Origin: a virus
DNA: 64,000 bases
Direction: 5' to 3' (one strand)
IMG/VR virus record: IMGVR_UViG_3300031963_009547
The number at the start of each line of letters is the position of its first letter. The stretch's first letter is position 1. Shown here in pieces: positions 3,683 to 19,679 of this stretch. The notes under the pieces are model-generated. The model had not been told where the DNA came from. It was given only the letters and a program-made list of their open reading frames with translations, and did no database searches. Position numbers and translations under genes: made by a program.

Positions 3683-4660
3683 TTATTTATTTTTATAGTA
3701 ATCCATCCAATACTCAATCATCTCATCTAACATAGATTCAAAAGTATATTTTGGATTCCAATTTAATCCATCTCTCAATTTTGATGAATCTCCTTTTAAA
3801 TTATATAACTCTTCAGGTCTGAAATGTTTCTCATCAATTACTATGTATTCACTATAATCTAATCCTAATGAACTAAATACGTAACTACATAAGTCTTGTA
3901 CCGAATGTGATATTCCTGTAGAACAAACGTAGTCTTCAGGTTTATCTGATTGTAGCATCAACCACATTGCTTCGACATAATCTTTAGCATGTCCCCAATC
4001 TCTTGTTGCATCTAAATTACCAATATTTAATTTTTCTTGTAAACCTAAACTAATTCTAACTGCTGCTTTAACAACTTTATTTGTTACAAAGTTTGTCCCT
4101 CTTCTTGGTGACTCGTGGTTAAACAAAATACCATTCCATATTTTCATACCATATGAATTGCGATAGTTTCGACAAATGTTGTATGAAAATACCTTAGCAC
4201 ATCCATAAGGCGATACTGGATTCATCGGTGTTGTTTCTCTTTGAAACCCATCTTCATCGATAGTATTTCCAAACATTTCAGATGACGATGCTTGGTAAAT
4301 TTTAATATCTTTATTTAATAGTTTTACCGCCTCCAATAAATTAAGAGTTCCAAGACCCGTTACATTTGCGGTGTAGATTGGTTGGTCAAAAGATATTCTT
4401 ACATGTGATTGTGCGGCCAAATTATAAATTTCAATTGGTTTAACTTCTTGTATTACTCTTGTAAGTGAAGATAAATCAGTTAAATCCGCATAGTGTAAAT
4501 GTAATTTATCGAATACGTCATCTAATCTACTTGTTTGATTTTCCGATACTGAATTTCTCTTTAATGTTCCGTGAACTTCATATCCTTTTTCTAAAAGAAA
4601 TTCTGCAAGATACGAACCATCCTGTCCGTTTATTCCTGTTATTAGTGCTACTTTTTTCAT
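3683..4660 (-). CDS. gmd: GDP-mannose 4,6-dehydratase
   Basis: ALITGINGQDGSYLAEFLL, YNLAAQSHV, YQASSSEMFG, PVSPYGCAK, LFNHESPRRG, RDWGHAKDYV. Confidence 0.97.
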   Translation of the reverse strand: MKKVALITGINGQDGSYLAEFLLEKGYEVHGTLKRNSVSENQTSRLDDVFDKLHLHYADLTDLSSLTRVIQEVKPIEIYNLAAQSHVRISFDQPIYTANVTGLGTLNLLEAVKLLNKDIKIYQASSSEMFGNTIDEDGFQRETTPMNPVSPYGCAKVFSYNICRNYRNSYGMKIWNGILFNHESPRRGTNFVTNKVVKAAVRISLGLQEKLNIGNLDATRDWGHAKDYVEAMWLMLQSDKPEDYVCSTGISHSVQDLCSYVFSSLGLDYSEYIVIDEKHFRPEELYNLKGDSSKLRDGLNWNPKYTFESMLDEMIEYWMDYYKNK

Positions 4661-5805
4661 TCGTTAATTATTGATACAATAGTTTGGATTTCATCAAAAG
4701 TCAATCCTTGATGGTTTGGTATGTAGAACCCAAACTTGTTTATTAATTCACAATTTTTTAATTCAACAGGTCCGTATTTTTTTACCCACATCGGTTTTTT
4801 AGACATGTCTCCAGCAATTAAAGGTCTAACCTCAATATTTTTTTCTAATAGTTTATTAACTATTTCATTTCTTCTTTCATTAATAATTGGGTATGCAAAG
4901 TTCGATACAAAATCACCTTTGTTTTCACCAACCATAATTTTATTATCACCAATTAGTGATTTATATTTTTTGAAATTTTCATTTCTTTTTTCACTATACC
5001 CGTCTAATTTATCAATTGCCATTAAACCAATAAATGCTTGTAAATCTGTTGCTCTTAAATTAAAACCCGGTAAATAAAAAGTATATAAAGAGTCAAACTC
5101 ATTTACATTATTTTCTTTTCTTAATTTTTCTTGTATGTGTGTAGGTAAATCCCTATCCCAACCGTGACTTCTCATCATTAATAATGAATAATAAAAATCC
5201 TCATCGTTTGTATTTATGAACCCACCTTCAATTGTGCTTAAGTGATGTCCAAAATACATCGAAAAAAATGATGCAAAACCAAAAGAACCTAAATACTTTC
5301 CTTGATATTTTGACCCCATACTTTCGCAAACATCTTCCAATAGAATTACATTGTATTTTTCACACAGTGAAATTACTTTTTCCATATTAGGAACTAAACC
5401 TAATGGTGAAACTAAAATCATACAAGATGGGTCATTTGTTTTAAACAACTCTTCTAAATGTTCTAAATCACAAGAAAGGTCTTCTAAGTTAGAGTCACAA
5501 AGTATTGGTTCCATACCTAATAACATTGGGGAACTAACATCGGTAGCCCAACTTAATCCAGGAACAACAACTTTGTTATTTTTTAATTTACCGGTGTGTA
5601 ATAATGATGCTAACGCTAAAATAATTGCTGACGACCCGGAATTAACATAGACAGAATATTTCGTACCTATTTTTTTAGCCCATTTTGATTCTAATTCCCA
5701 TGTTAAATCTCCTTTTGTAAGTCTTGGTATTTCATCTTGGTTTAACCATTCTATTAATTTATTGATGTCATTTTTATCAATTGTGTCTTTAACTAACTTT
5801 ATCAT
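4657..5805 (-). CDS. colD: GDP-4-keto-6-deoxymannose 3-dehydratase (ColD-type; DegT/DnrJ PLP fold)
   Basis: LEDVCESMG; FSMYFGHHLSTIEGG with His where aminotransferases have the Schiff-base Lys; RSHGWDRDLP; LPGFNLR; sits between gmd and an fcl-like gene. Confidence 0.8.
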   Translation of the reverse strand: MIKLVKDTIDKNDINKLIEWLNQDEIPRLTKGDLTWELESKWAKKIGTKYSVYVNSGSSAIILALASLLHTGKLKNNKVVVPGLSWATDVSSPMLLGMEPILCDSNLEDLSCDLEHLEELFKTNDPSCMILVSPLGLVPNMEKVISLCEKYNVILLEDVCESMGSKYQGKYLGSFGFASFFSMYFGHHLSTIEGGFINTNDEDFYYSLLMMRSHGWDRDLPTHIQEKLRKENNVNEFDSLYTFYLPGFNLRATDLQAFIGLMAIDKLDGYSEKRNENFKKYKSLIGDNKIMVGENKGDFVSNFAYPIINERRNEIVNKLLEKNIEVRPLIAGDMSKKPMWVKKYGPVELKNCELINKFGFYIPNHQGLTFDEIQTIVSIINE

Positions 5806-6703
5806 AATATGAATTATATACTAATTTTATACCTTCACTCAAAGGTGTGAATTCAAAATTTGGAAACAAATTTTTAAATTTATCTATTGAAACGTCTTTT
5901 CTAAATTGACCGTTTGGTTTTGTTGTGTCCCATTCAATTTTTATATTTTTACTATCGGTCACATCTAAAGCAATTTCAGCCATTTGTTTAATTGAAAGGT
6001 TTTCTTCAGTTGCAACATTGAAGCTTTCAGTTACATCTTTTTCAATTGTCTGTTTAATTATTTCTGCAAAATCACCAGCATACATGAATTGTCTTAGAGG
6101 TGTCCCATCACCAAAAAGAGTAATCTCACCTGAATTGTTATTTTTAGCGTAATTAATTTTTTTAATTAATGATGTTAAAAAATGACTTTTATTTTCGTCG
6201 TCCTTATCTTCAATACCATATAAGTTACAAGGAATTAAATATTGATAATTTAAATTATACTGAAGATTATATGCATCTATTTGTGCTCCCATTGAACGTT
6301 TAGAATAACCATAAGAGAAATTGGTTATAGTTGGTGGTCCCTCATGTAACATGGTTTCATCCATTGGGTATTTTCTTGCAACATCAGGGTATATACAAGT
6401 ACTTAAAATACCTATGAATTTTTTTACTTTGAAAATTCTTGAGTATTCGATTAGTAGTGTATTCATTAAAACATTCTGTGTAAAATATTCGGCAGGATGG
6501 TTAATATTATCAATTATACCACCAACCCTTGCTGCTAAATGAACTACTATATTAGGTTTATGTTTTAAAAACATTCGTTTAACACCTTCTTCCGTTGTTA
6601 AATCATAATCATTAGATGATATATAAATTGCTTCTGGTAATATCTTTTTTAAATATTTCCCAACTAATCCTGAACCGCCCGTTACTAATATTTTACTGTT
6701 CAT
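5789..6703 (-). CDS. GDP-L-fucose/GDP-L-colitose synthase (epimerase-reductase, Fcl/ColC family)
   Basis: ILVTGGSGLVG, HLAARVGGI, LSTCIYP, YGYSKR (YxxxK), PCNLYG, GDGTPLRQF. Confidence 0.9.
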   Translation of the reverse strand: MNSKILVTGGSGLVGKYLKKILPEAIYISSNDYDLTTEEGVKRMFLKHKPNIVVHLAARVGGIIDNINHPAEYFTQNVLMNTLLIEYSRIFKVKKFIGILSTCIYPDVARKYPMDETMLHEGPPTITNFSYGYSKRSMGAQIDAYNLQYNLNYQYLIPCNLYGIEDKDDENKSHFLTSLIKKINYAKNNNSGEITLFGDGTPLRQFMYAGDFAEIIKQTIEKDVTESFNVATEENLSIKQMAEIALDVTDSKNIKIEWDTTKPNGQFRKDVSIDKFKNLFPNFEFTPLSEGIKLVYNSYYDKVS

Positions 6704-6998
6704 TTTTAAAAAAAACTAAATCGTTTATTGCTTTGTCATCTACGATTAAATCGTAGTGTAATTTTCTACCAACATATAAATCATGGTATTTTACCCCCCA
6801 AGTTTCCAATTGATTTTTTGTTAAATTAAACCAATCAATTCCTGTTGTTGCCCCTCTTGCTGTGTCTATTATTATATGATTACCATCGTGATATAAATCA
6901 TTTAATTTTTTTATTCTTTGGTGAAAGGGTTCTGCCTTTTCGTAATCACCATATGTGTTAGTACATAAAGTACCATCTAAATCAAAACAATAAATCAT
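6693..6998 (-). CDS. small HAD phosphatase (capsule-biosynthesis type)
   Basis: FDLDGTL motif I, TARG motif II, VDDKA motif IV. Confidence 0.85.
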   Translation of the reverse strand: MIYCFDLDGTLCTNTYGDYEKAEPFHQRIKKLNDLYHDGNHIIIDTARGATTGIDWFNLTKNQLETWGVKYHDLYVGRKLHYDLIVDDKAINDLVFFKNEQ

Positions 6999-7939
6999 AT
7001 AATTGTAATTTTTTTTGGTTCTGAAAATTCTAATGTTTGAGGTCTGTTATTTTTAATTATAATATCTAAAATTTCATCATCACTTAACCCAACCAATTTA
7101 AAAGTTAAATTTGTTTTTTTAGAATCAATTAAACTAACATTTATTTCTGTATTTGTCACAGACCACTCTTCATTCAAAACATAGAAATCTACGTTACTAC
7201 CATAGTGAGTAATAAACCCTCCCGCATCGGCTGCGGTTAAAACCCCCCTTGATAAATAAAATAATGATATTAGTTCATCCTGAGTTAATGACTCATCAAT
7301 TTCCAAATAGTTTTCAGTAATATTATAAGATTGTGGTGGAAATCCTATATTAATGATATTATATCCGTTTGATATTAATTTATTTAATAATTTTTCTAAA
7401 TGGGGTAATGACGATAAAGTGTTATGTTCAGTCGATTTATTTTTAAAATTTCTAGTAATTAATATAAAGGTTTTATCTGTAAAAAGATGACCGTATTTTT
7501 TTTTAATCGATTTAAAAACTTTTTCAGTTGGTTTTATGGTCAAACCATTATCAAAGAATTTTTTAGCATAATCTAAAGAAGTGGTGTATGTGTTTCTTGG
7601 AGAAAATACATCAACAACACCGTCATCATATTCTGTTTTTTGCCAACTACGGATTTCAATATTATCAATACCATATTTTTCAGTACAGTAATTAATACAT
7701 TTTTCTAAAAAAAGGTCATTTTCTCGTGATGCACTATCTAATACAGATGGGTATGAAAAAAAATCTCCATTTTTTACGGTAATAATTTCATCAACTGATG
7801 ATAACACAATATAACCATTATACTGTGTTATTCCGATAACTTTAGAACCGTCAGTTTTAGATTCATTTATAAAAGAATTAAATGGTAATAATTGATTCCA
7901 TTCTTCAGGTTGTGTAATATAAATTAATACCTTAGACAT
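6995..7939 (-). CDS. hypothetical protein, possibly a GT-B (GT9-like) glycosyltransferase
   Basis: C-terminal ILITRN...IINIG...LISLFYLSRGVLTAADAGGFITH is loosely GT9-like; sugar-operon context. Confidence 0.4.
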   Translation of the reverse strand: MSKVLIYITQPEEWNQLLPFNSFINESKTDGSKVIGITQYNGYIVLSSVDEIITVKNGDFFSYPSVLDSASRENDLFLEKCINYCTEKYGIDNIEIRSWQKTEYDDGVVDVFSPRNTYTTSLDYAKKFFDNGLTIKPTEKVFKSIKKKYGHLFTDKTFILITRNFKNKSTEHNTLSSLPHLEKLLNKLISNGYNIINIGFPPQSYNITENYLEIDESLTQDELISLFYLSRGVLTAADAGGFITHYGSNVDFYVLNEEWSVTNTEINVSLIDSKKTNLTFKLVGLSDDEILDIIIKNNRPQTLEFSEPKKITII

Positions 7940-7946
7940 TTTTATT

Positions 7947-8777
7947 TTAGATATTATTAACTTTTCTAAGTTTTTTAGCTATTGGTTTTTCAGTTTCATA
8001 AACAACTTTGACACCGTCACCTAAAACCGTTTCCATTTTACGAATTCCAGACATTAACTCCCCAACGTTTTCAATAGACGCAGCTTGGTCTGAACCATAC
8101 ATTGTTCTGTCTTTTGTAATGTGAAATTCAATACATTCTGAACCTAATGCAACAGCCCCAAAACAAGGAATCATCCCACTTGCGTGATTAGAAAACCCAA
8201 TTTTATATTGTGGGTATTTTTCCTTCAAAGTTTTGATGTAATTTAAATTAATTTCTTCGTCTTTTGTTGGGTATGTACTTGTACATGCTAAAACATATTC
8301 CACATTATTTAAAATATTGATTGCGGAATCAACTTCTCTTTCTGTAGACATACCAGTAGAAACGATGATTGGTTTACCTGTTGAATTTAATTTTTCCAAA
8401 AATGTTTTATCTGTTAATAAAGCTGAAGCTACTTTATGATATTTCACATTTAAGTTTGATTCAATTAAATCGACACTTTTTGTATCCCAACAAGAAACAA
8501 TAAAATCTAAACCTAATGCGTTTGAGAATTTTTCTAAATCTTTATATTGTTCAATACTAAACTCTAATCCCATCTTTTGTTCACGATTAGTTGTTCCCCA
8601 TGGGGATTCTCTTTGTGCGTCCAATTCTTCTTTAGTGTATACCGACTCGATATCTCTTTTTTGAAATTTAACAGCATCACATTCATAAGTTTTTGCCATA
8701 ACTATTAATTCTTTCGCCAAATCAAGGTCACCATTATGGTTGATTCCGATTTCTGCAATCACATAAGTCTTTTTCAT
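7947..8777 (-). CDS. neuB: NeuB-family ulosonic acid synthase, short form lacking the C-terminal SAF domain
   Basis: IAEIGINHNGD, AVKFQKR, KVASA, PIIVSTGMS, CTSTYP, GFSNH, IEFHIT, GSDQAAS; only 276 aa. Confidence 0.92.
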   Translation of the reverse strand: MKKTYVIAEIGINHNGDLDLAKELIVMAKTYECDAVKFQKRDIESVYTKEELDAQRESPWGTTNREQKMGLEFSIEQYKDLEKFSNALGLDFIVSCWDTKSVDLIESNLNVKYHKVASALLTDKTFLEKLNSTGKPIIVSTGMSTEREVDSAINILNNVEYVLACTSTYPTKDEEINLNYIKTLKEKYPQYKIGFSNHASGMIPCFGAVALGSECIEFHITKDRTMYGSDQAASIENVGELMSGIRKMETVLGDGVKVVYETEKPIAKKLRKVNNI

Positions 8778-8790
8778 TTTTTAATATTTT

Positions 8791-9894
8791 TTATTTTTTA
8801 TTTGAAAGTTCAACTTTTACTTTTTTTAGTGCTGAACCGATAATCTGATGCATATCATAGTATTTGTATTCTGCCAATCTACCTCCGAATATTACATTAG
8901 GTAGTGTTTCTGCTAACTTTGCATACTTTTGATAAACTTCATTGTTTTTTTTATCATTTATTGGATAATATGGTATATCGTTTTCAGTGTAAGTTTTTGA
9001 ATATTCTTTAGTAATCCATGTAACATCTGACTTTGAATTTTCGAAGTGTTTATGTTCGGTAATTCTTGTATACGGTACTTCTTCATGTGTGTAGTTCATG
9101 ACAGCACAACCTTGGAAGTCTTCCAAATCTACTTTTTCATGAACAAAATCTAATGACCTATACTCTAATTTACCGTATTTATAATCAAAAAATTCATCTA
9201 TTTTACCTGTGAAAACAATTTTATCCGCTATTGAGTAATAGTAATCTTTGTTATCAAAAAAATCAACATCGGTCATTACATCAATACCATCAAATATTCT
9301 TTCAAATATTTTTGTATATCCATCTACAGGTATACCTTGATATTTGTCTGAAAAATAATTGTCATTGAAATTAGTTCTTATGGGTATTCTTTTGAGAATT
9401 GCCGATGGTAAATCTTTAGGGTCTCTACCCCACTGTTTTTTTGTGTATCCTTTAATAAAAATTTCATATATTTCTTTACCTATTTGTGAAAGTGCAAAAG
9501 TCTCGAAATTTTCATCTTGTAAATTTTTAGAAACAACTGAATTTAATTTTTCTTTAGCCATTTCAGGGCTTGTTACACCCCACACTTGACATAGTGTTAG
9601 TAAATTAATCGGGAAAGAATATATTTTATCTAAATAACTAACTTTAGGTCTGTGCTGGTAGTTATTAAATTCAGTAAATTGATTTATCCAATTCCAAATA
9701 GTTAAATCATTAGTGTGAAAAATGTGTGAACCATATATATGAACGTTTATATTATCTTTTTTTTCGCTATAACAATTACCACCTATGTGTTTTCTTTTTT
9801 CAATAACTAAACATTTTTTACCCGATTTAGTCATCTCATGCGCGAATACCGCACCAAATAAACCACTGCCGACAATTAAATAATCATATTTCAT
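8791..9894 (-). CDS. glf: UDP-galactopyranose mutase
   Basis: IVGSGLFG, HIGGNCY, YGSHIFHT, YTKKQWG, YQGIPVDGYT, GRLAEYKYYDMHQ. Confidence 0.96.
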   Translation of the reverse strand: MKYDYLIVGSGLFGAVFAHEMTKSGKKCLVIEKRKHIGGNCYSEKKDNINVHIYGSHIFHTNDLTIWNWINQFTEFNNYQHRPKVSYLDKIYSFPINLLTLCQVWGVTSPEMAKEKLNSVVSKNLQDENFETFALSQIGKEIYEIFIKGYTKKQWGRDPKDLPSAILKRIPIRTNFNDNYFSDKYQGIPVDGYTKIFERIFDGIDVMTDVDFFDNKDYYYSIADKIVFTGKIDEFFDYKYGKLEYRSLDFVHEKVDLEDFQGCAVMNYTHEEVPYTRITEHKHFENSKSDVTWITKEYSKTYTENDIPYYPINDKKNNEVYQKYAKLAETLPNVIFGGRLAEYKYYDMHQIIGSALKKVKVELSNKK

Positions 9895-10901
9895 ATAATA
9901 TCACCATTATTATAATAGGAATACCATAAATCTACAATCTTATTAAGTTCTTTTGATAATTTCCATGGTTTATTATGACCTGTATAGTGTATAATGTGTA
10001 TTTTATCATCGTTAATGAAAAGTTGGTTGTCTTTAATTCTCACTTCAGAACGACGTGTTCCCGTTAAAGGTGATACTTCCGTTAAATTTAAAAAGGTGGT
10101 GTCAGATAATTCACCATCACCTAAATAACCTCCTAAGTCATTTAACCCACTTAAATTCCATTGGGACCCCATATTATAAAATTTAATTTTATTTTTAACT
10201 AAAAATAAATTAATGTATGATTGTGCGAGAAATTCAAAAGAATGGCCAAAAGGAATTAACTCATCAAAAGAATCTGACATTTTTTTAAACATATCACTTT
10301 TTGCTGCAAAAACACCGCCATTCATACTTAAATAATCATCAACATTTTCTAACCCTAATTCATTCACAATTACATCCATACGTCCGTGATTAATTCTCTC
10401 ATCTTTATTCAAGGTGAGGCTTCTTAATTTAGTTAAGTATTCGTGTCTTTCCGCACCATCAAATGTAATTTGATTTCTAAATGGCCATATCCATTTAGGT
10501 TCTAAAAAATTAGCAACACCGTCATCCATTGAGCCAACAAATTCATTTGTGTCTAATTTTTCAAAATATTCTGAAAGGTCAGATAAAACTAATGTATCCA
10601 CTTCTAATGATAAAATATTTTCAAATCCCGACATCCAAGAAAAAAGTTGTGCAAAACAAGAAAAATCCTTCATAAACCCACCTTGCCAAAATCTAACTTT
10701 ACCTGATAGTAATTCATTTACAAATTTTAAATCAACAACTTTTATATTTTTTTCTTTTAGTTTATTTAAATTTTCTGCACTTATACCAGTATCAAAAACA
10801 CAAACACCGACATTAGGGTTTGATATTTTTAAAGAGTTTAACGTTGCAACTAAACCTAAAAAATATTCGTCATTAGTTGCTAAAACTATACCATTCTTCA
10901 T
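9891..10901 (-). CDS. glycosyltransferase family 8-like
   Basis: IVLATNDEY, LSLEVDTLVLSDL, MNGGVF, QSYINL, IIHYTGHNKPW. Confidence 0.85.
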   Translation of the reverse strand: MKNGIVLATNDEYFLGLVATLNSLKISNPNVGVCVFDTGISAENLNKLKEKNIKVVDLKFVNELLSGKVRFWQGGFMKDFSCFAQLFSWMSGFENILSLEVDTLVLSDLSEYFEKLDTNEFVGSMDDGVANFLEPKWIWPFRNQITFDGAERHEYLTKLRSLTLNKDERINHGRMDVIVNELGLENVDDYLSMNGGVFAAKSDMFKKMSDSFDELIPFGHSFEFLAQSYINLFLVKNKIKFYNMGSQWNLSGLNDLGGYLGDGELSDTTFLNLTEVSPLTGTRRSEVRIKDNQLFINDDKIHIIHYTGHNKPWKLSKELNKIVDLWYSYYNNGDII

Positions 10902-10906
10902 TTTTT

Positions 10907-11482
10907 TTATTTAAACATTTTATTTTCTACTATTTCTAAAATTGTATGCCCAAGTAGTGTGTGACATTCTTGTATTCTTGCTGTGTTATTTGAAGGTATG
11001 ATTAGATTGTAATCTGATATGTCTTTCATTTCTCCACCATCATTACCAATAAAAGATACAACAATAGCACCTTTGTTTTTGGCAACTTCAATAGCTTTAA
11101 TAACATTTTTTGATTTACCTGATGTTGAAAAACAAATTAGAATGTCACCTTCTTTTATTGATGATTTAATTTCTCGTGAAAAGATATCTGAGTATGAATA
11201 ATCATTTCCTACCGCAGTTAAGTAAGAAACATTAGACGCTAATAAAACCACCTCTAACGGGTCTCTATCAAAATAGAAACGACCACTTAATTCTGCTGAA
11301 AGGTGTTGTGCGTCTGCAAAACTACCACCATTACCACAAAAATATACCTTATTACCGTTTTTATAACACTCGATGATTTTTTCTGCAATCTTATTTGAGT
11401 TGTTTATAATTTCTTCATTATTCAATAATTCAGTCTTCAATCTAATTGACTCCTGAATATTTTTTATAACCATTTCTACCAT
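10907..11482 (-). CDS. gmhA: phosphoheptose isomerase (SIS domain)
   Basis: CGNGGSFADAQHLSAEL, TAVGNDYSY, STSGKSKNV, TARIQECH. Confidence 0.93.
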   Translation of the reverse strand: MVEMVIKNIQESIRLKTELLNNEEIINNSNKIAEKIIECYKNGNKVYFCGNGGSFADAQHLSAELSGRFYFDRDPLEVVLLASNVSYLTAVGNDYSYSDIFSREIKSSIKEGDILICFSTSGKSKNVIKAIEVAKNKGAIVVSFIGNDGGEMKDISDYNLIIPSNNTARIQECHTLLGHTILEIVENKMFK

Positions 11483-12294
11483 ACTGTTTTACCTCCGTCT
11501 ATAACGACATTCGAACCTGTCATATATGAACTTGCGTCAGAACACATAAACACAATCGCACCTTTATATTCATCAATATGAGCCATTCTACCCATCGGTA
11601 TAATATTAGATAACTTCGTTACAAAATCAACAGGATGGTCATTATAAACTCCTGTCGGACTTAAACAATTTACTCTAATATTATTTTTAGCGAAATATGT
11701 AGAAAGATATTTGGTCATACCAATTACTGCCCACTTGGCTGCAGAATACGTAATTGGTTTTACATTCTGTTCGTTTTCAGATTTTGTTTCATCTCTGTAT
11801 ATTCTTTGGTCAGGAGCAATTACACCTAAGTCGGATGAAATGTTTAGTACTACACCACCACCTGTTTCTAACATTTTATTACAAATAACTTGTGAAGTAA
11901 TAAAAGTTCCGTTTATAATTGCATCAATACCTTCTTTAAAATATGATTCAGTCATAACCTCAAATCTTGTTTCAGGTGTTAAACTTTTATCGTCCTTTGT
12001 AACTTTTGGGTCTTTAGCAGCATTGTTAATAAGGATATCAATTCTTTCATATTTGTTTGATACCTCATCCACACTATTTTTATCTGTGACATTCATGTAT
12101 TCCATAAACACATTTTCTTCTCCATAAATTGAAGAAAGCTCTTTGTGTTTCTTAGTTAACATATCCATGTCTACATCGGTAAGAATTACTTTAGCTCCAT
12201 ATTCTAAAAGAGCTTCAGCGTGTTTTGGACCTAATAATCCACCAGCACCTGTAATCAAAGCAACCTTACCATCTAAATCAAATAAGTTTCTCAT
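11476..12294 (-). CDS. short-chain dehydrogenase/reductase (PtmA-like)
   Basis: ALITGAGGLLG, LINNAA, NISS, YSAAK, NIRVNCLSPTG, PMGRM, VIDGG. Confidence 0.9.
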   Translation of the reverse strand: MRNLFDLDGKVALITGAGGLLGPKHAEALLEYGAKVILTDVDMDMLTKKHKELSSIYGEENVFMEYMNVTDKNSVDEVSNKYERIDILINNAAKDPKVTKDDKSLTPETRFEVMTESYFKEGIDAIINGTFITSQVICNKMLETGGGVVLNISSDLGVIAPDQRIYRDETKSENEQNVKPITYSAAKWAVIGMTKYLSTYFAKNNIRVNCLSPTGVYNDHPVDFVTKLSNIIPMGRMAHIDEYKGAIVFMCSDASSYMTGSNVVIDGGKTVW

Positions 12295-13058
12295 AATAAT
12301 GTTTTGATTTTTTGGTATGTATTTTTTATGTAATTTATTTCATCACCATCTACATCTCTTGCAAGTTGCAATATGATGTTATCAGTGTAATTAATATTTT
12401 TTAATGAATCAATTATAATTTTAAAATCAGTATCACCCAACCCAAAATGTTTTGTTTCTCCATTAAAGGTTCTATCTTTAAAATGTACATTTTTTATTTT
12501 TGACCCAAAGTAATGTATCAATTCTTTATGGTCTATTTTTTCTTTATATGTTGAGGTGAAATTACCGGTGTCGTAGGTAATAAAAAAATTGTTTTTATTA
12601 TTGACGACATCCATCACAATTTCTTTATCACATTCAAATTCAAAACAGAAATTAATCGATGGGTATTTTTCAGATATTGGGATTATGTTTTTTAAAAATT
12701 CATATCTGATATATTCATTTTCTACTGAACTATCTTCTAAAAGGGGTATTACAATTTTATTTAATTTTAGTTCTACCATTTTATCTAAAACTGGTACTAA
12801 ATTTTCATTCATAAATTCATCTTTGTAAAATGAATTATTAACCATAGTATCTACACAAACTGATAAGATGTTAGTAGGTAAATTAGGTTCATTAAATAAT
12901 GGATTATTTGAGTTATCATTTGGAGTTATTAACCATTCAATACCACATAATTCAATGTGATTTAAAACGTTAAATTCTGTCTTCCAATTAGATGGAAACT
13001 CTTGCATTTTTTTATTGACGGGTTCACTAAGACGACCCTGAAGAATTCCTACTTTCAT
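12291..13058 (-). CDS. sugar-phosphate isomerase/epimerase (xylose-isomerase-like TIM barrel)
   Basis: GILQGRLS start, FEFE, YDTGN, NVHFKDR, LGDTDF metal-binding pattern. Confidence 0.8.
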   Translation of the reverse strand: MKVGILQGRLSEPVNKKMQEFPSNWKTEFNVLNHIELCGIEWLITPNDNSNNPLFNEPNLPTNILSVCVDTMVNNSFYKDEFMNENLVPVLDKMVELKLNKIVIPLLEDSSVENEYIRYEFLKNIIPISEKYPSINFCFEFECDKEIVMDVVNNKNNFFITYDTGNFTSTYKEKIDHKELIHYFGSKIKNVHFKDRTFNGETKHFGLGDTDFKIIIDSLKNINYTDNIILQLARDVDGDEINYIKNTYQKIKTLL

Positions 13059-13468
13059 AATAACTCAACAAATTCTATAATATTATTTTCTGGGTCCATA
13101 CCAAAAAAAACTTTAACTGTTTTTTCATCAGAAATAGTTGGGGTATTGATGACAGATAAATTATTATCAATAAACTTATTGTAAAGAAAATTAACATCTT
13201 TTATAGTCAATGCAAAGTGAGTGTAACCATTTTCTAAAAGACTTTTTTTATTTACATCACAACTCCCAAAATAAAGTAATTCAACTATTGTTTTGTTATC
13301 AACCCCCAGTTTAATTATTCTTGGAGATTCATTATCAGAATTAAGAATATGATTTAAAAATCGACCTTCTTCTATTTTATCGTAAAGTATTTCTAAACCA
13401 ATTAAATCACGGTAAAACCATAACATTTTATCTAAGTCGTTTACGACTATACCAACATGTCTAAACAT
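13055..13468 (-). CDS. VOC/glyoxalase-family protein
   Basis: RHVGIVVNDL..FYRDLIGL, VELL, THFALTI, DPENNIIEFVE. Confidence 0.9.
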   Translation of the reverse strand: MFRHVGIVVNDLDKMLWFYRDLIGLEILYDKIEEGRFLNHILNSDNESPRIIKLGVDNKTIVELLYFGSCDVNKKSLLENGYTHFALTIKDVNFLYNKFIDNNLSVINTPTISDEKTVKVFFGMDPENNIIEFVELL

Positions 13469-14781
13469 TCTATCAAACTTTCTTTTAATACTCCAATACC
13501 TTCAATTAATGCATCATCATCGATTGTTAATGGTGGACCTATTTTTAAGGTTCCTGATTGAGTCCTAATCGATAATAAACCTTTTCTCATAGCCACTTCT
13601 ATAATCATATCAACAAAATCAATATCATTTCCATTTGGTGATTTTATGAACACACCAGATAATAACCCTTCGCAGTTTATTTTTTTTACATAATCAGGCA
13701 TTTCTGTTTTCCATTTTAACAATTCCATTCTCATTATTTCTCCCTTCCTATAAGACTCATTAACTAAGTCATTATCTAAAAGATATTTAACAGAAGCGTT
13801 TGATGCTGCAACCGCAACAGGATTACCACCATGCGTACTATTGTAAGACATGTCATTATTAATAATTCCATTATTAGTTATGACACAAGATAATGGTAAC
13901 GAAGATGAAATACCTTTAGCACAAACAATTATATCTGGAACAATTTCAAAATGTTCATATGCAAATAATTTACCAGTTCTACCAAAACCTGATTGTATTT
14001 CGTCTATAATTAACAAAACTTTATTTTCATCACACCATTTTCTTAATAATTTAACATAATCTTTTGATGCGAATTCAGCAGACCATCCTTGGTATGGTTC
14101 CATGATTACTGCGGAATATTCAGAAGGATTTAAACCTTTAAAGTATTTCTCAAATAGTTCTTGTGGTGTTAATTTTTCGTTTTCTAATGTAATGGTGTCG
14201 GGGTAAGGTAAATGTGTGACATATGTTTTAACAGGTATCCATTCTTGTGATTTAAATTTTCCACCCGCCATAGCTGAACCCATGGTTTTACCATGATACC
14301 CATTATTAAATGAAATAATTTTATTTTTACCAGAATGTTTAATTGACATTTTGATTGCACACTCAACCGCTTCAGAACCTGTTGATAAAAATAACACCTT
14401 GTCAAAATTTTCAGGAGTGGATTCTACCAACAATTTAGAAAATTCAGACCTCTCTTTTGTTGGGTAATAATATGCGTTTAATAAATTTTTATTAGTTGTG
14501 GATATAATTGCGTCTTTTACTTTTGGGTTTGAGTGACCTACATTTGCAACAAAAATTGATGATGTAAAATCAATCCATTTATTACCTGAAATATCATAAA
14601 TTGAATAGTTCGATGCCGAATCCCACACAACGGGTAATTGGTCGTTCATTGAATCGGGCTCATATTTGATGCAATCATTTAAATATTGTAATGATTGTGG
14701 TGAAGGTATTGGTGTGATGATGTTTCGATAACGAGTTTTTACAACATCACAGTTAAATGGAGTTAACTGAAACTTATGCAT
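13447..14781 (-). CDS. class III PLP aminotransferase
   Basis: DISGNKWIDF, STGSEAVE, YHGKT, MEPYQG, LIIDEIQSGFGRTG, PDIIVCAKG, THGGNP. Confidence 0.93.
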   Translation of the reverse strand: MHKFQLTPFNCDVVKTRYRNIITPIPSPQSLQYLNDCIKYEPDSMNDQLPVVWDSASNYSIYDISGNKWIDFTSSIFVANVGHSNPKVKDAIISTTNKNLLNAYYYPTKERSEFSKLLVESTPENFDKVLFLSTGSEAVECAIKMSIKHSGKNKIISFNNGYHGKTMGSAMAGGKFKSQEWIPVKTYVTHLPYPDTITLENEKLTPQELFEKYFKGLNPSEYSAVIMEPYQGWSAEFASKDYVKLLRKWCDENKVLLIIDEIQSGFGRTGKLFAYEHFEIVPDIIVCAKGISSSLPLSCVITNNGIINNDMSYNSTHGGNPVAVAASNASVKYLLDNDLVNESYRKGEIMRMELLKWKTEMPDYVKKINCEGLLSGVFIKSPNGNDIDFVDMIIEVAMRKGLLSIRTQSGTLKIGPPLTIDDDALIEGIGVLKESLIECLDMLV

Positions 14782-15442
14782 TTTTTTTATTTAAGATAAA
14801 CTCAATATAATTAAAATCCTCGATAGTGTCAATTTCATAAGTTTTATCAGTAATAAAAGAATAAATTTTATCACCGTAAAAATTGTCTGAATTCATAAAC
14901 ACTTCAGGATTTACTATATCTATATATCCATTTGGTGAATACGTTTTGGGATAACTTTGTCTAGGTAAGTTAGTATCCATACCCTCTACAATAGGACTCC
15001 AATATATCCCGTCTTGTTTATAAAATTTGTAAACAGATTCTGAAGTTTCGTGGGCGGACCTAAGACTTGTGATTAATGATTTATTCTTTAAAAATACTTC
15101 AATAGCATCGTCTATAACTGAATGATTAATCAAAGGTGTTGTTGCTCGTAAATGTATAATTGGTTCAGTATAGTTTAATTCCTTACAAAAATGTCTGAAA
15201 GAATCGATATCTAACGATGTGTCAGTTGACAATTCAGAAGGTCTTATAATTATTTTACATCCTAATTTTTTTGATATCTCAATAATTTCTTCGTCGTCGG
15301 AAGAAACGTATATATCCGTAATTTTTTTTGATTCTTTTGCCGAAGTGATAACATATTCAATTAAAGGTTTACCTAATAATTTTTTTATATTTTTTTTGGG
15401 TATTCCTTTACTACCTCCTCGAGCTAAAATTAAAGCTATCAT
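14774..15442 (-). CDS. neuA: CMP-ulosonate synthetase (acylneuraminate cytidylyltransferase)
   Basis: ALILARGGSKGIPKKNI, VSSDD, RPSELSTD, TTPL, PRQ, NGYIDI, EIDTIEDF. Confidence 0.93.
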   Translation of the reverse strand: MIALILARGGSKGIPKKNIKKLLGKPLIEYVITSAKESKKITDIYVSSDDEEIIEISKKLGCKIIIRPSELSTDTSLDIDSFRHFCKELNYTEPIIHLRATTPLINHSVIDDAIEVFLKNKSLITSLRSAHETSESVYKFYKQDGIYWSPIVEGMDTNLPRQSYPKTYSPNGYIDIVNPEVFMNSDNFYGDKIYSFITDKTYEIDTIEDFNYIEFILNKKNA

Positions 15443-16137
15443 TTTTTTTCCGCTTTACAAATTAACATTGCCTCTTTTGAGAATCTAATTATTTTGTTTG
15501 TTTTTTTACCCCATAATACTTTTTCAAAAGGTGAGTAAGGTAAAGGTAATTTTTGAATTATATACCTAAAAATGTTTAAAAATGGATATTTCCATGTTAA
15601 TGGTAACTGATACAAATAATCACATTCAGAGACAAATCCTGATAATTCACAGGCGGTTTCTAATGAGTATCGTGTAAAAGGGGTAACGTGAGTATGGTCA
15701 ATATAAAATGCTTCTTTATATGAATGTTTCCAGCTTGGCGCCATACATATTAATACTCCCCCTTTTTTTAACATTCTATAAGATTCATCTAATAAAATAT
15801 CTGGATTATGTAGATGTTCGACAACAGATTTTGAAAAAATAAAATCAAATTTTTCATCTTTAAATGGGTATTTTTTCTCATTTAAATTATATGACTTAAA
15901 CTTTTTTGATGGTATATTTTCTTTAGCTGAGTCAGAAATATCTATTCCATATGCGTCTATACCACACTCAATGAAACACTTAGTTAACACACCGTCTCCA
16001 CAACCAATATCTAAAATTTTATCACCCTTTTTTATATTATATTTTTTTATAATATAGTTAACTAACTTTTTTGGATAGTCTGTTTTATTCTCTTTATATG
16101 TTGTTTGTACGTAATTTGGATTAAATATTGAACTCAT
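15439..16137 (-). CDS. class I SAM-dependent methyltransferase
   Basis: ILDIGCGDG, GIDIS, FDFIFSKSVVEHL, LKKGG, DHTH. Confidence 0.92.
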   Translation of the reverse strand: MSSIFNPNYVQTTYKENKTDYPKKLVNYIIKKYNIKKGDKILDIGCGDGVLTKCFIECGIDAYGIDISDSAKENIPSKKFKSYNLNEKKYPFKDEKFDFIFSKSVVEHLHNPDILLDESYRMLKKGGVLICMAPSWKHSYKEAFYIDHTHVTPFTRYSLETACELSGFVSECDYLYQLPLTWKYPFLNIFRYIIQKLPLPYSPFEKVLWGKKTNKIIRFSKEAMLICKAEKK

Positions 16138-16862
16138 ATTTTTTCAGTTTTGAATATAGTTTTAAGAATTGAATCTTCGCTGGTGTTTATTATCTCAATA
16201 CCAAGATTTTTTACACTATCATTTATAATTTTAAAATCATTTAAAATATTATTTATACAGACATCAAATTCAATCACTGAATGAGGTCTCATATATGAAT
16301 TATAATAACCTTTTTTATAATCTAAATCTACACCGGATATAAAAATTTTATTACAACCAAGTAATATTGATAACGCTAACATATGTATTGCAACTGTATC
16401 ACCCGTACTATATCTTAAATCATAATTTGTAAATTTTTGTAATTCTTCTTGTATTGTTAATCTACCATCTATAAAATTTTTACATCCATTAGGGCAATTA
16501 TTACATTTAGAATTATTAAAATGTCTTTGGTCGTACCCAATATAATTTAATCCTGAGGAGTTTTTTTCTATCCATTCTCTTGGGGTTGAGTCAACTGAAT
16601 CCGAATGTACTATTGTTGTACCCTCATATTTTTTAAATCTTTCTAACATAAATGGAAATGTTTGCAATGAATTTGCAAACACCCAATAATCGGGTTTTAA
16701 ATTTGTGTTAATATCAATATCATTACAACATATTAAAATTATTTCGTCTCTATTTTTTGTAATGTATTCTATAGTCTCTGATAAGGACGGACCTAAACCA
16801 CATATAAATGCAGTTTTATTTAGATGTTTGTTTTTAATTTGCTCAAAATTATATTGTATCAT
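16134..16862 (-). CDS. Maf/DUF115-like protein, putative ulosonic-acid transferase
   Basis: AFICGLGPSL, CCND, TVAIHMLALSILLGCNKIFISGVDLDY, typical of Maf/CstII-like folds; next to neuA. Confidence 0.72.
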   Translation of the reverse strand: MIQYNFEQIKNKHLNKTAFICGLGPSLSETIEYITKNRDEIILICCNDIDINTNLKPDYWVFANSLQTFPFMLERFKKYEGTTIVHSDSVDSTPREWIEKNSSGLNYIGYDQRHFNNSKCNNCPNGCKNFIDGRLTIQEELQKFTNYDLRYSTGDTVAIHMLALSILLGCNKIFISGVDLDYKKGYYNSYMRPHSVIEFDVCINNILNDFKIINDSVKNLGIEIINTSEDSILKTIFKTEKI

Positions 16863-18085
16863 TTGAATGGTGATTCTATTAAATTATTTTTAATCATTTC
16901 TCTATTGATTAGGTATAAAACGTTTTTAGGTTTTAAATGTATATCATCTACATAATATATTTCTTTAGTCGTGTCTCCATCAACTAAGTAATCATATATA
17001 CTTAAAAATTTGTAACCTTTTTTTGAACACTCTTCCTTAACTCTTTGATTAAAATATTCTTTAAATTTTCTTCTTTCGCTATATGTACCTCTTGGTTTAT
17101 CAAACGCTTCTGGATTTTCTCTATAATAGAATATAAACGGCTCTTCTTTTAATTCCGGTGTTACCGAAAATAAAATTATATTTTTATTATATAAATTGTC
17201 AATAAATTGAAAATACCTATCAATAATTTCATCTATTAATTCAATATAATCTTTGTTTTGTTCGTCCATATTTTTTTTTACTTGAGCTCTACAATCTATT
17301 TCACCAAAACAAATAAGAATATTTTCATCATAAGATACATTATTAATTATTTCATATACATTTGGTTTGTTAATTAAGTTGTATGCTAAATAAGGTCCGA
17401 ACCTATAGGTATGATAAGAATCATATACAATTAATTCATTCATATTAAATAAACTTTCTTTATTAGAAAAAATACTAATATGACTATCACCAAAACAATT
17501 TATTTTTTGTATTTTTTTCTGCGTCCACCCTTCAAAAATAAATTCGTAATTAAAAATAGTATCATAATATACTGATACCTTTTCCAAAATTGAATTTCGT
17601 TTTTCAACATATCCGTCGACAAACCCGTGAAATTGTACCAAATAATTTTCAAAGACATTTAATTCAGGTATTGATGACAGATATTCTAATAATCTATACT
17701 CTTCCCCTTCAATATTAATTTTTATTAAATCTACTTGAAAAATTTGCTCCTCGAATAAAAATTCTTTTATAGATTTAAGTTTTATTTTTTCAGTTCTGTC
17801 GTTTTGTGAATATATTGATGATGCATCACCATTTGTGCTTATATATTCATCTCTTGTGATATCTGACAAACCAAAATTATAAACTTTTATATTTTCATTA
17901 TTTTTATATCTATGTACTATCTTTTCATAGAATGATAACACAGGTTCAAATATATATATTTTTGGATTTTCGTATCTGTCAATACAAATTTGAGCAAAAT
18001 CACCCATATACCCACCAACGTCAAAAATTACAGAATCTTTTTTTAATTCAAATTTCATTACATCATTCCAAGTTGGATTTCCCAT
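16859..18085 (-). CDS. FkbM-family methyltransferase fused to an SGNH-hydrolase domain
   Basis: N-half FDVGGYMG, IFEPV, IKINIEGEEY, VQFH; C-half FGDSH, FGEIDCR, DDIHL. Confidence 0.8.
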   Translation of the reverse strand: MGNPTWNDVMKFELKKDSVIFDVGGYMGDFAQICIDRYENPKIYIFEPVLSFYEKIVHRYKNNENIKVYNFGLSDITRDEYISTNGDASSIYSQNDRTEKIKLKSIKEFLFEEQIFQVDLIKINIEGEEYRLLEYLSSIPELNVFENYLVQFHGFVDGYVEKRNSILEKVSVYYDTIFNYEFIFEGWTQKKIQKINCFGDSHISIFSNKESLFNMNELIVYDSYHTYRFGPYLAYNLINKPNVYEIINNVSYDENILICFGEIDCRAQVKKNMDEQNKDYIELIDEIIDRYFQFIDNLYNKNIILFSVTPELKEEPFIFYYRENPEAFDKPRGTYSERRKFKEYFNQRVKEECSKKGYKFLSIYDYLVDGDTTKEIYYVDDIHLKPKNVLYLINREMIKNNLIESPFK

Positions 18086-18088
18086 TTT

Positions 18089-18862
18089 TCAAATTTTTAT
18101 CAATTTATTAAAATACACGTCACTTGTATCTATATTTTTTTTAGCGGGTCCAAACCATTTTTTTGGTCCTATCACTATTTTATTTTCATTCTTATTTAAC
18201 CAAGCCCCCCACCATGAAAATGACGAATTCGCTATAATATTATTATAACATAAAGACATCAAAATTAAATCTTCGTAATCTTTATTATTTTCACAATATA
18301 TAACATTATCTAAAAAGTTAAAATTTTCTTTACACCACCTAATATCATCTGAGAAAATAAAAAAAGTTTTATCAGAACCAACTATAGATATTGCTTCTTT
18401 ATAATATTCTAAACTTTGTGTTGGGTGGTGGTCTAATAGATTTAAATAATCACCTCTTCTTACATGTATAGAACAAGTGTTTTCATGTAATACTTCTTTA
18501 TATTTTTCACGTATGTTATTAACAACTTCATCACAATAAAAAAAATCTAAAATTTTATTTCTGTTGTGTTTGAAATATTTTTCAGATTGAAAATATCCGT
18601 GAAGTGATGTTGGTAACATAAAATCAGGTATGGGTGAATAGTGAAAATGTGGTTCATTATATATTTGACTCGTAACAAAATTACCATCTAATATTAAATT
18701 TTTCAAAATATTGTCCATGTAAACGTCAATTGGTTTATGGACTACTTGGACATTATTTGGGTTGATAACAAATTTTTCACCCAAATCTAAAGATTTAGAA
18801 TATGCTGTTGCGATTTGAAAAAGATAGTTCCCAAGACCACCCATTAAATAACAAGAAACCAT
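18089..18862 (-). CDS. GT11 alpha-1,2-fucosyl/colitosyltransferase
   Basis: MGGLGNYLFQ, GYFQSEKYF, SIHVRRGDYL, FSDDIRWC, IIANSSFSWWGAWL. Confidence 0.93.
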   Translation of the reverse strand: MVSCYLMGGLGNYLFQIATAYSKSLDLGEKFVINPNNVQVVHKPIDVYMDNILKNLILDGNFVTSQIYNEPHFHYSPIPDFMLPTSLHGYFQSEKYFKHNRNKILDFFYCDEVVNNIREKYKEVLHENTCSIHVRRGDYLNLLDHHPTQSLEYYKEAISIVGSDKTFFIFSDDIRWCKENFNFLDNVIYCENNKDYEDLILMSLCYNNIIANSSFSWWGAWLNKNENKIVIGPKKWFGPAKKNIDTSDVYFNKLIKI

Positions 18863-18863
18863 A

Positions 18864-19679
18864 TTATAAGTTTTCTTTTATGAATTTATACACATGTTCG
18901 TCAGGTAGTAAAAAGTTTTTACACTTATCAAAGTTTTCTCTAATAACATCTAATTTTGAGTTATAAAAATCTTCATTACAGTCGTTTAAAATTGTTTCTA
19001 ACTCATCCATATTATCAAATATTAACATACCGTCAGTATTGAAAAAATCACCAATAGAAGGACACCCCCAATATATAGGAATCGTTCCTGTTGCAAAACA
19101 ATCAATTAGTTTTTCTGTAAACCAATAATCTCTTTTACAATTTTCAATAACAACTGAAAAACGATAATCTTTAAGACCATCAATTTTAAAATTAATAGGG
19201 TTATAACTTCTACCGAACACATCCATTTTATCACCAAACTTTTGAATTACTTCGTGTCTTAATCTATGCCCGTCAGTGAATGTTTTATTAGATGAAATGA
19301 CTGAAATGTTTTTACTTTTATCGTAAACTTTTTGTTCTTCTTTCGGTATCCAACAACACCCAAAAGGAATGAATTTTGTATTGTAATCTAAATCTAATAA
19401 TGTTTTTTCATGTGTTAAAATGTAATCAAACTTCATTAGATTATTTCTAACGTAATCGTAATGTTGAGGTGCAACACAAACAGGCTCAATCAACCAAGCG
19501 ATTTTATTTTTAGATGGTGGTAAATTTGATGTTAAAAAATTATCAGTAATAACTAAATTTTCAGTATTATTTGGTTGGGTTCTTTCCCACTCAAAATTTT
19601 CTGACTTTTGAAAGTCAGAACAATAACCTAAAATAGAGTGTGAAAAAGTATTATCTGCAATTTTTATTTTTTGTTTCAT
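18864..19679 (-). CDS. GT10 alpha-1,3-fucosyltransferase-like protein
   Basis: YRFSVVIENCKRDYWFTEKLIDCFATGTIPIYWG matches the GT10 signature. Confidence 0.88.
   Translation of the reverse strand: MKQKIKIADNTFSHSILGYCSDFQKSENFEWERTQPNNTENLVITDNFLTSNLPPSKNKIAWLIEPVCVAPQHYDYVRNNLMKFDYILTHEKTLLDLDYNTKFIPFGCCWIPKEEQKVYDKSKNISVISSNKTFTDGHRLRHEVIQKFGDKMDVFGRSYNPINFKIDGLKDYRFSVVIENCKRDYWFTEKLIDCFATGTIPIYWGCPSIGDFFNTDGMLIFDNMDELETILNDCNEDFYNSKLDVIRENFDKCKNFLLPDEHVYKFIKENL

Follow-up and report, generated by a model that had tools for sequence, protein, structure and literature searches.

2-Keto-3-deoxynononic acid (Kdn) is made by an established route in which mannose-6-phosphate (Man-6-P) is joined to phosphoenolpyruvate (PEP), followed by a phosphatase and then a cytidine monophosphate (CMP)-synthetase (PMC6200933). 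Here we describe a gene cassette on the minus strand, at positions 6693-16862, of IMG/VR virus record IMGVR_UViG_3300031963_009547, whose 64,000 nucleotides, taken as a whole, are referred to below as the window. Judged from its predicted proteins, the architecture of the cassette is like that of Kdn or 3-deoxy-D-manno-octulosonic acid (Kdo) synthesis, with an oxidation and a transamination resembling those that lead to 8-amino-Kdo (Kdo8N), and it appears to be a member of no characterised pathway. The cassette likely makes a CMP-activated amino ulosonic acid by a phosphorylated route of the Kdn/Kdo type and transfers it.

Like the Kdn pathway of Bacteroides thetaiotaomicron and Prymnesium parvum, the cassette combines a NeuB-family synthase, predicted to use PEP and a sugar phosphate, with a HAD phosphatase and a CTP_transf_3 CMP-synthetase (PMC6200933), and the phosphatase of its bacterial versions best matches the Kdn-9-phosphate (Kdn-9-P) phosphatase model. 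It differs in that the synthase lacks the SAF domain and falls in a clade of its own, GmhA is recruited rather than a source of Man-6-P, and the phage phosphatase is a mini-HAD of 101 amino acids (aa) that is not KdsC-like; the cassette furthermore adds a short-chain dehydrogenase/reductase (SDR), a TIM-barrel epimerase, an aminotransferase, a VOC protein and a methyltransferase. The order of steps, i.e., SIS-fold isomerase, PEP aldolase, HAD phosphatase and CMP-transferase, is that of the Kdo pathway (KdsD, KdsA, KdsC, and KdsB), whereas the aldolase here is of the NeuB type instead of KdsA and the isomerase is of the GmhA type instead of KdsD. In the Kdo8N branch of Shewanella (KdnB and KdnA), the free ulosonate is oxidized and then transaminated to give an amino sugar-acid with a free amine, the role of KdnB, a type III FeADH (an iron-dependent alcohol dehydrogenase), having been described (PMC5125639). 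The cassette oxidase, in contrast, is an SDR, and its aminotransferase belongs to class III (class IV or DegT in other versions), so that the comparison with KdnB/KdnA drawn in the initial annotation holds for the logic of oxidation and transamination, as an analogy only, and fails for the type of oxidase.

With the pathways for legionaminic acid (Leg; LegB/C/H/G/I/F) and pseudaminic acid (Pse; PseB/C/H/G/I/F), the cassette shares a NeuB-family synthase, a NeuA-family CMP-synthetase and an MptE/Maf-type transferase, but it has no 4,6-dehydratase, N-acetyltransferase or hydrolysing 2-epimerase, its amination is not of the PseC/LegC kind, and it has a phosphatase. To PtmA, the SDR has a weak resemblance (99.8 bits, with the cut-off at 350). 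An analogy to PtmA/PtmF, with PtmF taken as an SIS protein, was considered and dropped; PtmF is listed as a 326-aa oxidoreductase in a Plesiomonas table (PMC4481668). Escherichia coli ycjQRS likewise pairs a dehydrogenase with an AP_endonuc_2 TIM-barrel epimerase that inverts the center next to the new carbonyl; it differs in substrate class, the sequence identity is about 16%, and the cassette carbonyl is probably captured by the aminotransferase. Finally, mass spectrometry of Magnetospirillum has led to reports of ulosonic acids that are CMP-activated and have a lengthened backbone; those of Magnetospirillum gryphiswaldense are alpha-keto acid sugars, likewise CMP-activated, whose chain exceeds nine carbons (putatively C10), yet they carry two N-acetyl groups and one O-acetyl group, unlike the substituents expected here (PMC8157484; bioRxiv 10.64898/2026.04.20.719630). 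Our literature search found no description of a gmhA/neuB/neuA/aminotransferase cassette and no matching characterised pathway.

Gene content and spread of the cassette

Genes were called from open reading frames (ORFs) together with Pfam and NCBIfam profile searches. Every gene that the initial annotation had named at 6693-16862 was recovered on the minus strand, while three further genes in the interval, which it had left out, were added: a UDP-galactopyranose mutase, a GT8 glycosyltransferase and a 314-aa glycosyltransferase-like protein. In transcription order, from the highest coordinate downward, the genes are as follows.

16134-16862, minus strand: Maf/MptE-like protein with a predicted sialyltransferase fold, 242 aa (PF01973, 62.7 bits; cut-off 34.6)
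15439-16137, minus strand: S-adenosylmethionine-dependent class I methyltransferase (Methyltransf_23/11)
14774-15442, minus strand: NeuA-type CMP-ulosonate synthetase (CTP_transf_3, 104 bits)
13447-14781, minus strand: class III (omega-type) pyridoxal phosphate (PLP) aminotransferase (Aminotran_3, 284 bits)
13055-13468, minus strand: VOC/glyoxalase-fold protein (PF00903)
12291-13058, minus strand: TIM-barrel protein resembling metal-dependent ketose 3-epimerases (AP_endonuc_2, 31.8 bits; cut-off 31.1)
11476-12294, minus strand: classical SDR oxidoreductase (adh_short)
10907-11482, minus strand: SIS/GmhA protein, sedoheptulose-7-phosphate isomerase (GmhA models)
9891-10901, minus strand: GT8 glycosyltransferase (PF01501)
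8791-9894, minus strand: UDP-galactopyranose mutase, Glf (TIGR00031, 406 bits; cut-off 304)
7947-8777, minus strand: short NeuB without SAF domain, 276 aa (PF03102, 208 bits)
6995-7939, minus strand: 314-aa protein, probably a glycosyltransferase (protein-atlas feature search)
6693-6998, minus strand: capless HAD phosphatase (mini-HAD), 101 aa (HAD motifs)

The genes are tightly packed: of 14 junctions, counted as 13 within 6693-16862 and one with the upstream gene, 10 overlap by 4-22 bases and the other 4 are gapped by 5-13 bases. Glf and GT8 are a local insertion, and gmhA stands directly beside neuB in the relatives L006-L008 and L010. That L006-L008, at 95% identity, lack Glf/GT8 points to fast glycan-gene turnover inside one phage lineage. 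The 314-aa protein (6995-7939) had no Pfam or NCBIfam match; in the protein-atlas feature search, it clustered with "glycosyltransferase family protein" clusters at 0.96-0.97, and homologues occur in L003, L006-8 and L011. It is probably a glycosyltransferase, with a resemblance to GT9 (the heptosyltransferase family) as a weak lead only.

We then compared gene neighborhoods and a BLAST synteny table over 15 loci, a search that the initial annotation had suggested as a check, and found that the cassette recurs in at least 10 viral contigs (33-99% identity) and in bacterial chromosomes (25-48% identity), a recurrence well beyond what chance would produce. The set shared across loci consists of NeuA, the aminotransferase, VOC, TIM, SDR, GmhA, NeuB and mini-HAD proteins, with the Maf-like gene nearby, and it persists down to 33-50% identity and through several gene orders; its conservation despite rearrangement argues for one function. 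Nine bacterial loci around short NeuB genes were examined, of which several show the cassette, in chromosomal DNA of 42-60% guanine plus cytosine (GC) content, and the others a part of it. Two of the bacterial orders, with MT for methyltransferase and AT3 for the class III aminotransferase, read HAD-MT-NeuB-NeuA-AT3-VOC-MT-TIM-SDR-SDR and GmhA-HAD-NeuB-TIM-NeuA-AT3-VOC-MT-MT-SDR-SDR. Short NeuB itself was found, at 43-49% identity, in 15 of 401 sampled Pseudomonadota genomes (about 4%), where SAF-bearing forms of 343-350 aa matched at 34-41%; in public metagenomes, it forms at least 120 clusters of 70-98% identical proteins.

A pattern scan with the TIM-barrel alignment over the genomes of 185,579 species gave one match, a contig of 35% GC in a "Maricaulis" metagenome-assembled genome (MAG). 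This contig (L005, NZMJ01000023.1, 12.7 kb, 35% GC) carries a phage-type cassette and has very probably been assigned in error to this alphaproteobacterial MAG of high GC. The impression of a phage-only cassette was an artefact of narrow TIM patterns and was rejected, since short NeuB with the cassette occurs in Pseudomonadota genomes. The searches of cultured phages brought up no cassette: neither megablast with the region, run on 50,697 phage records, nor tblastn with the TIM protein gave a match, and the NeuB search matched only a Kyanoviridae single-virus genome (61%), an uncultured 484-kb phage and a Moritella record. Altogether, the cassette is a phage copy of a widespread uncharacterised bacterial module and not a phage invention.

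Variants were seen in two related phage contigs. In L010 (219 kb, positions 4261-10004), a class IV aminotransferase takes the place of the class III enzyme, the methyltransferase and the VOC protein; the contig also has a carbamoyltransferase and a STELLO-like glycosyltransferase as additions, and its HAD homologue has 213 aa. In L003 (91 kb, positions 13289-16507), homing-endonuclease-like ORFs (NUMOD3/AP2 and LAGLIDADG) lie between the sugar genes.

Synthase, phosphatase and the amination block

The short NeuB was compared with Neisseria meningitidis NeuB by HMMER alignment to 1xuu and by a family alignment. All PEP- and metal-binding residues are kept, i.e., E25, K53, Q55, K129, S132, S154, Y186, S213, H215, E234, H236 and D247, whereas the protein stops after the barrel (276 aa versus 349 aa) and is without the SAF domain and its Arg314. 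This arginine, contributed by the SAF domain to the sugar site, is essential. The phage protein has Leu at the position of Glu134; in a set of 19 short members, viral and bacterial, this position is Leu/Met in 18 and Cys in one, preceded by Ser-Ala (Ser-Pro in one), and the long forms have Gly/Ser followed by Glu/Asp, or His-Ser, at the same site. In the maximum-likelihood NeuB phylogeny, another check put forward with the initial annotation, the short forms fall in a single clade of their own (support 99/98), inside which a main viral clade of eight (100/100) is joined by a second viral pair nested among bacteria. Scores are below the equivalog cut-offs for both NeuB_NnaB (TIGR03569, 226.6 versus 399.65) and PseI (TIGR03586, 153 versus 340.25). 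Short NeuB is therefore a subfamily of its own, expected still to work as a PEP aldolase, with a remodelled pocket for the aldose.

The putative phosphatase adjoins neuB or lies near it in the viral copies. Its HAD motifs are complete (DLDGT at residues 6-10, T46, K79, and D87-D88), and from these it looks functional; family scores are weak (EcbF/BcbF, 31 bits; BT0820, 24 bits), and the phage mini-HAD gave no match to the Kdn-9-P or KdsC phosphatase models. In bacterial versions, a phosphatase of the KdsC/Kdn-9-P family stands between gmhA and neuB, with Kdn-9-P phosphatase as the best model for these cassette phosphatases at 81-102 bits, under the cut-offs of 180 and 107. The presence of a dedicated phosphatase argues for entry of the aldose in phosphorylated form, as is the case for Kdn and Kdo. 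The proposal of a KDN-like phosphorylated route in the initial annotation is thus supported by the intact mini-HAD motifs and by the bacterial phosphatases, and we regard a Kdn-type route to an amino ulosonic acid as likely.

One could instead suppose an ordinary Neu5Ac (N-acetylneuraminic acid), Leg or Pse pathway, in which the host supplies N-acetylmannosamine or a diacetamido sugar and the other genes provide unrelated tailoring or belong to separate sugar pathways. In favor of this, NeuB and NeuA have domains that clearly belong to the sialic-acid type, and phages commonly rely on host precursors. Yet NeuB scores well under the NeuB and PseI equivalog cut-offs, lacks the SAF domain, Arg314 and the acidic Glu134, belongs to a separate clade, and has a dedicated phosphatase conserved next to it. 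The absences reported here refer to the window and to five partial related viral records. The glycan block of the window contains no NDP-sugar 4,6-dehydratase for N-acetylhexosamines, PseB/LegB, PseC/LegC, N-acetyltransferase or hydrolysing 2-epimerase, and no NeuC/Epimerase_2 was found in the five related records. A DegT protein encoded next to the cassette has His at the position of the PLP lysine, which makes it a dehydratase and not a PseC/LegC aminotransferase. These findings bear out the earlier remark that precursor enzymes for Neu5Ac, Leg and Pse are missing, and they leave an ordinary pathway of this kind most improbable.

The amination block begins with the SDR, which is the most conserved protein of the cassette after NeuB (64-99% identity among most viral copies and 40-47% to bacteria). 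Its motifs (TGxxxGxG, NNAA, Ser, and YxxxK) are intact, and it is a candidate for the carbonyl-forming step. The TIM protein adjoins it in all viral copies that have a TIM protein and in most bacterial ones. An AlphaFold2 model of the TIM protein (pLDDT 90.7) gave as top Foldseek matches the L-xylulose-5-phosphate 3-epimerase UlaE and ketose 3-epimerases (TM 0.71-0.79), as well as the 3-keto-glucoside 4-epimerase YcjR, all of which act at a carbon next to a carbonyl. In sequence, the invariant residues E140, D163, H192 and E240 fit the Glu-Asp-His-Glu pattern of a putative metal site.

The class III aminotransferase has an invariant DEIQSGFGRTG motif and Lys289, and its nearest solved enzymes are gamma-aminobutyric acid, acetylornithine and putrescine aminotransferases. 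Every version of the cassette with a readable interior has an aminotransferase, although three unrelated types are found: class III here and in most loci, class IV in L010 and one bacterium, and DegT both in L014 and in L015 (the Kyanoviridae genome). That unrelated enzymes have replaced one another speaks for a single keto intermediate, conserved and in need of amination, and the amination of the product that had been proposed from the window alone is in agreement with this distribution. A further connection comes from a bacterial genome of 52% GC (L032, positions 11328-12755), where a mini-HAD is fused to a class IV aminotransferase in one protein of 475 aa; its N-terminal domain is 53% identical to the phage mini-HAD and its aminotransferase is 59% identical to that of L010. 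We take the fusion, on its domain sequences, as a Rosetta-stone link between the phosphatase and amination steps. Terminal aldehydes are the usual target of class III aminotransferases, and this habit, together with the fusion, hints that the amine may sit at the dephosphorylated end.

Genes for the VOC protein and a methyltransferase accompany only the class III type of aminotransferase, in viral and bacterial copies alike, and wherever that type occurs, the VOC gene is its direct neighbor. The VOC protein has no close relative among solved structures; it is possibly an epimerase or isomerase acting next to a carbonyl, and the methyltransferase would N- or O-methylate the sugar.

These genes need not form one pathway: the SDR/TIM/VOC/aminotransferase block might make a separate amino sugar or aglycone and be merely co-localised with a plain Kdn-like NeuB/HAD/NeuA set. 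Such a separation would fit the fact that the pathway steps are assigned from sequence and models, and that neither the VOC protein nor the class III aminotransferase has sugar-specific relatives among solved structures. Yet SDR and TIM stay with short NeuB through many changes of gene order in phages and bacteria, phosphatase and aminotransferase are fused in one bacterium, three unrelated aminotransferase folds occupy the same slot as if to meet one keto intermediate, and no other sugar-activating enzyme is present in the cassette. We consider two unconnected pathways improbable.

GmhA, carbon number and transfer of the product

We next considered which aldose phosphate the synthase may use. 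The GmhA protein scores 183.6 bits with TIGR00441 (cut-off 209.45), its top four models are all GmhA, and bacterial GmhA genes gave 167-203 bits in the same search. Aligned with Burkholderia pseudomallei GmhA (2xbl; E value of 1.8e-47), it keeps GNGGS, AQH...E, STSGKS and IQE.H..LGH, motifs that hold the serines binding the phosphate and the His, Glu, Gln and His of the catalytic/zinc site. Three of the five related viral records have GmhA, each as a single copy within the cassette. No GHMP kinase, PfkB kinase or NTP_transferase was found in the five related viral records, consistent with the observation in the initial annotation that GmhA has no heptose kinase partner, and it follows from these records that the phages encode no other consumer of heptose-7-phosphate (heptose-7-P). 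D-glycero-D-manno-heptose-7-P has the manno configuration, like the usual substrates of NeuB. The intact GmhA and the lack of another user favor heptose-7-P as substrate and a ten-carbon acid as product; we would put this substrate assignment, drawn from gene content, just short of an even chance.

The most far-reaching view of the product, to which we give a rough probability of 0.4, is a ten-carbon amino, possibly N-methylated, 3-deoxy-dec-2-ulosonic acid, made from sedoheptulose-7-phosphate via GmhA and the SAF-less NeuB and decorating virion proteins or the infected cell in freshwater jumbo phages. In the order of steps that we propose, GmhA, whose family assignment is firm and whose link to NeuB is conjectural, would convert sedoheptulose-7-phosphate to D-glycero-D-manno-heptose-7-P, and the SAF-less NeuB would condense the aldose phosphate with PEP. 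The mini-HAD would then strip off the terminal phosphate, the SDR would create a carbonyl, the TIM epimerase would act beside it, and the aminotransferase would convert it to an amine, with further tailoring of the product by the VOC protein and the methyltransferase. NeuA would produce the CMP-sugar, and the small Maf-like protein with the sialyltransferase fold would transfer the sugar, probably onto a soluble acceptor, e.g., virion proteins.

Several points weigh against this proposal. GmhA is not present in L014 and L015, two partial viral records that carry short NeuB; it is facultative in bacteria as well, with a gene within 10 kb of neuB in only two of the nine bacterial loci. A GmhA gene exists somewhere in every bacterial short-NeuB genome checked, as expected in Pseudomonadota, so that its presence does not discriminate. 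To our knowledge, no NeuB-family enzyme accepts a heptose phosphate. The phosphatase of the phage, for its part, is of very small size and remains far under any curated cut-off, and we infer alike which step follows which, where the amine sits and how many carbons the product has.

The same architecture could yield a nine-carbon product of the amino-Kdn type from Man-6-P or another hexose-6-phosphate, in which case GmhA would be an isomerase of fructose-6-phosphate to Man-6-P or would meet a separate need for heptose, such as host ADP-heptose for the GT9-like 314-aa protein. For NeuB homologues of bacteria and algae, Man-6-P with PEP is the one phosphorylated substrate pair that has been demonstrated (PMC6200933). 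The lack of GmhA in some short-NeuB records and in most bacterial loci would fit a hexose substrate, as would the weak GT9 lead of the 314-aa protein. On the other hand, GmhA keeps all motifs of a heptose isomerase and aligns with GmhA models only, and L001 and L010 have GmhA without a homologue of the 314-aa protein. In bacteria, GmhA stands directly beside the phosphatase and neuB, including in one genome that has, besides the cassette-linked GmhA, a second copy elsewhere; furthermore, Man-6-P is a universal metabolite, for which recruiting an isomerase would be needless. We regard a nine-carbon product as rather unlikely and prefer the ten-carbon scheme, whatever its own uncertainty.

For activation, the NeuA-type protein scores 110 bits with the PseF model, under its cut-off, and has CMP-Neu5Ac synthetases (6ifd and 1eyr) as its best PDB matches. 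The Maf-like gene is present in most viral copies, and its product matches the WaaZ Kdo-III transferase model weakly but at full length. An AlphaFold2 model of this protein (pLDDT 88) gave as top Foldseek matches Campylobacter jejuni CstII (E value of 1e-7; TM 0.54) and CstI, Maf 5mu5 (E value of 2e-6) and other sialyltransferases. With 242 aa, the phage protein is near the CstII chains (243-258 aa) in length and far below the solved Maf chain 5mu5 (632 aa). Maf proper has about 600 aa with flanking domains and acts on flagellin, from which the phage protein differs. On its MptE-like domain and the matches of its model to CstII, CstI and Maf, which agree with the transfer by a Maf-like protein that the initial annotation had envisaged, a role as CMP-ulosonate transferase is plausible, while the protein is too small for a classical Maf.

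The operon offers some indication of the acceptor. No polytopic membrane protein is encoded among its 29 products, three of which have one hydrophobic stretch each, and no flippase, polymerase or initiating transferase was found in it; this suggests a soluble acceptor, such as virion proteins, with host machinery as another option.

Neighboring genes, the phage setting and significance

The cassette sits within a stretch of about 24 kb of sugar genes (the 29 operon proteins above), and the minus strand carries all genes from 147 to 27176. Three genes follow the cassette at its low-coordinate side.

5789-6703, minus strand: Fcl-like reductase
4657-5805, minus strand: ColD/RfbH-type DegT dehydratase (His at the PLP-lysine position; best match RfbH)
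3683-4660, minus strand: Gmd (414.6 bits on the Gmd model; cut-off 415)

From these assignments, 3683-6703 looks like a pathway for a 3,6-dideoxyhexose of the GDP-colitose type. In the more distant loci L005, L011 and L012, a CDP-type E1-like DegT protein and a dehydratase are found instead beside the cassette, so that the ulosonate genes seem to keep company with a set for a 3,6-dideoxyhexose. On the other side, at 16859-20401 (minus strand), the window encodes a 408-aa protein in which an FkbM methyltransferase is joined to an SGNH/GDSL domain. Next come GT11, GT10-like and GT2 genes, and those of their products that resemble fucosyltransferases could be transferases for the colitose-type sugar. 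At 22035-22655 (minus strand) lies the gene of a protein that resembles dUTPase/dCTP deaminase and is extended at its N terminus by about 70 aa; the gene shows translational coupling to that of the final glycosyltransferase in the sugar block.

The source is a large, tailed phage of low GC (about 30%), whose window encodes a 1,070-aa tail sheath, a family B DNA polymerase and PhoH, and whose genome, from CheckV estimates of near-identical IMG/VR contigs, is implied to be about 300-400 kb. Near-identical copies of the cassette DNA occur in lake and other freshwater metagenomes from at least 14 studies. No close cultured phage was found, the polymerase reaching at most 25% identity (Salinibacter and Nostoc phages). 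Sheath families match only the C-terminal third of the tail sheath (39032-42244, plus strand), which indicates a long upstream insertion or extension; an Fe/Mn superoxide dismutase at 34268-35356 (minus strand) has an additional N-terminal region of about 160 aa with no family match.

Sialic-acid-like sugars govern the recognition of cells and viruses. Beside the few known ulosonic-acid routes, i.e., those of the Neu5Ac, Kdn, Leg, Pse and Kdo types, the cassette represents a further and unstudied one, and it bears on why large phages spend about 24 kb on glycan genes. Its biochemistry could be approached through the three types of aminotransferase, which can stand in for one another, and through the fusion of phosphatase and aminotransferase. 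Ten-carbon ulosonic acids may exist in nature, as has so far been hinted at by mass spectrometry alone, and the cassette supplies a concrete set of enzymes with which their existence and their making can be tested; if the ten-carbon scheme is true, the product would belong to a class of sugars without a solved structure or a known pathway.

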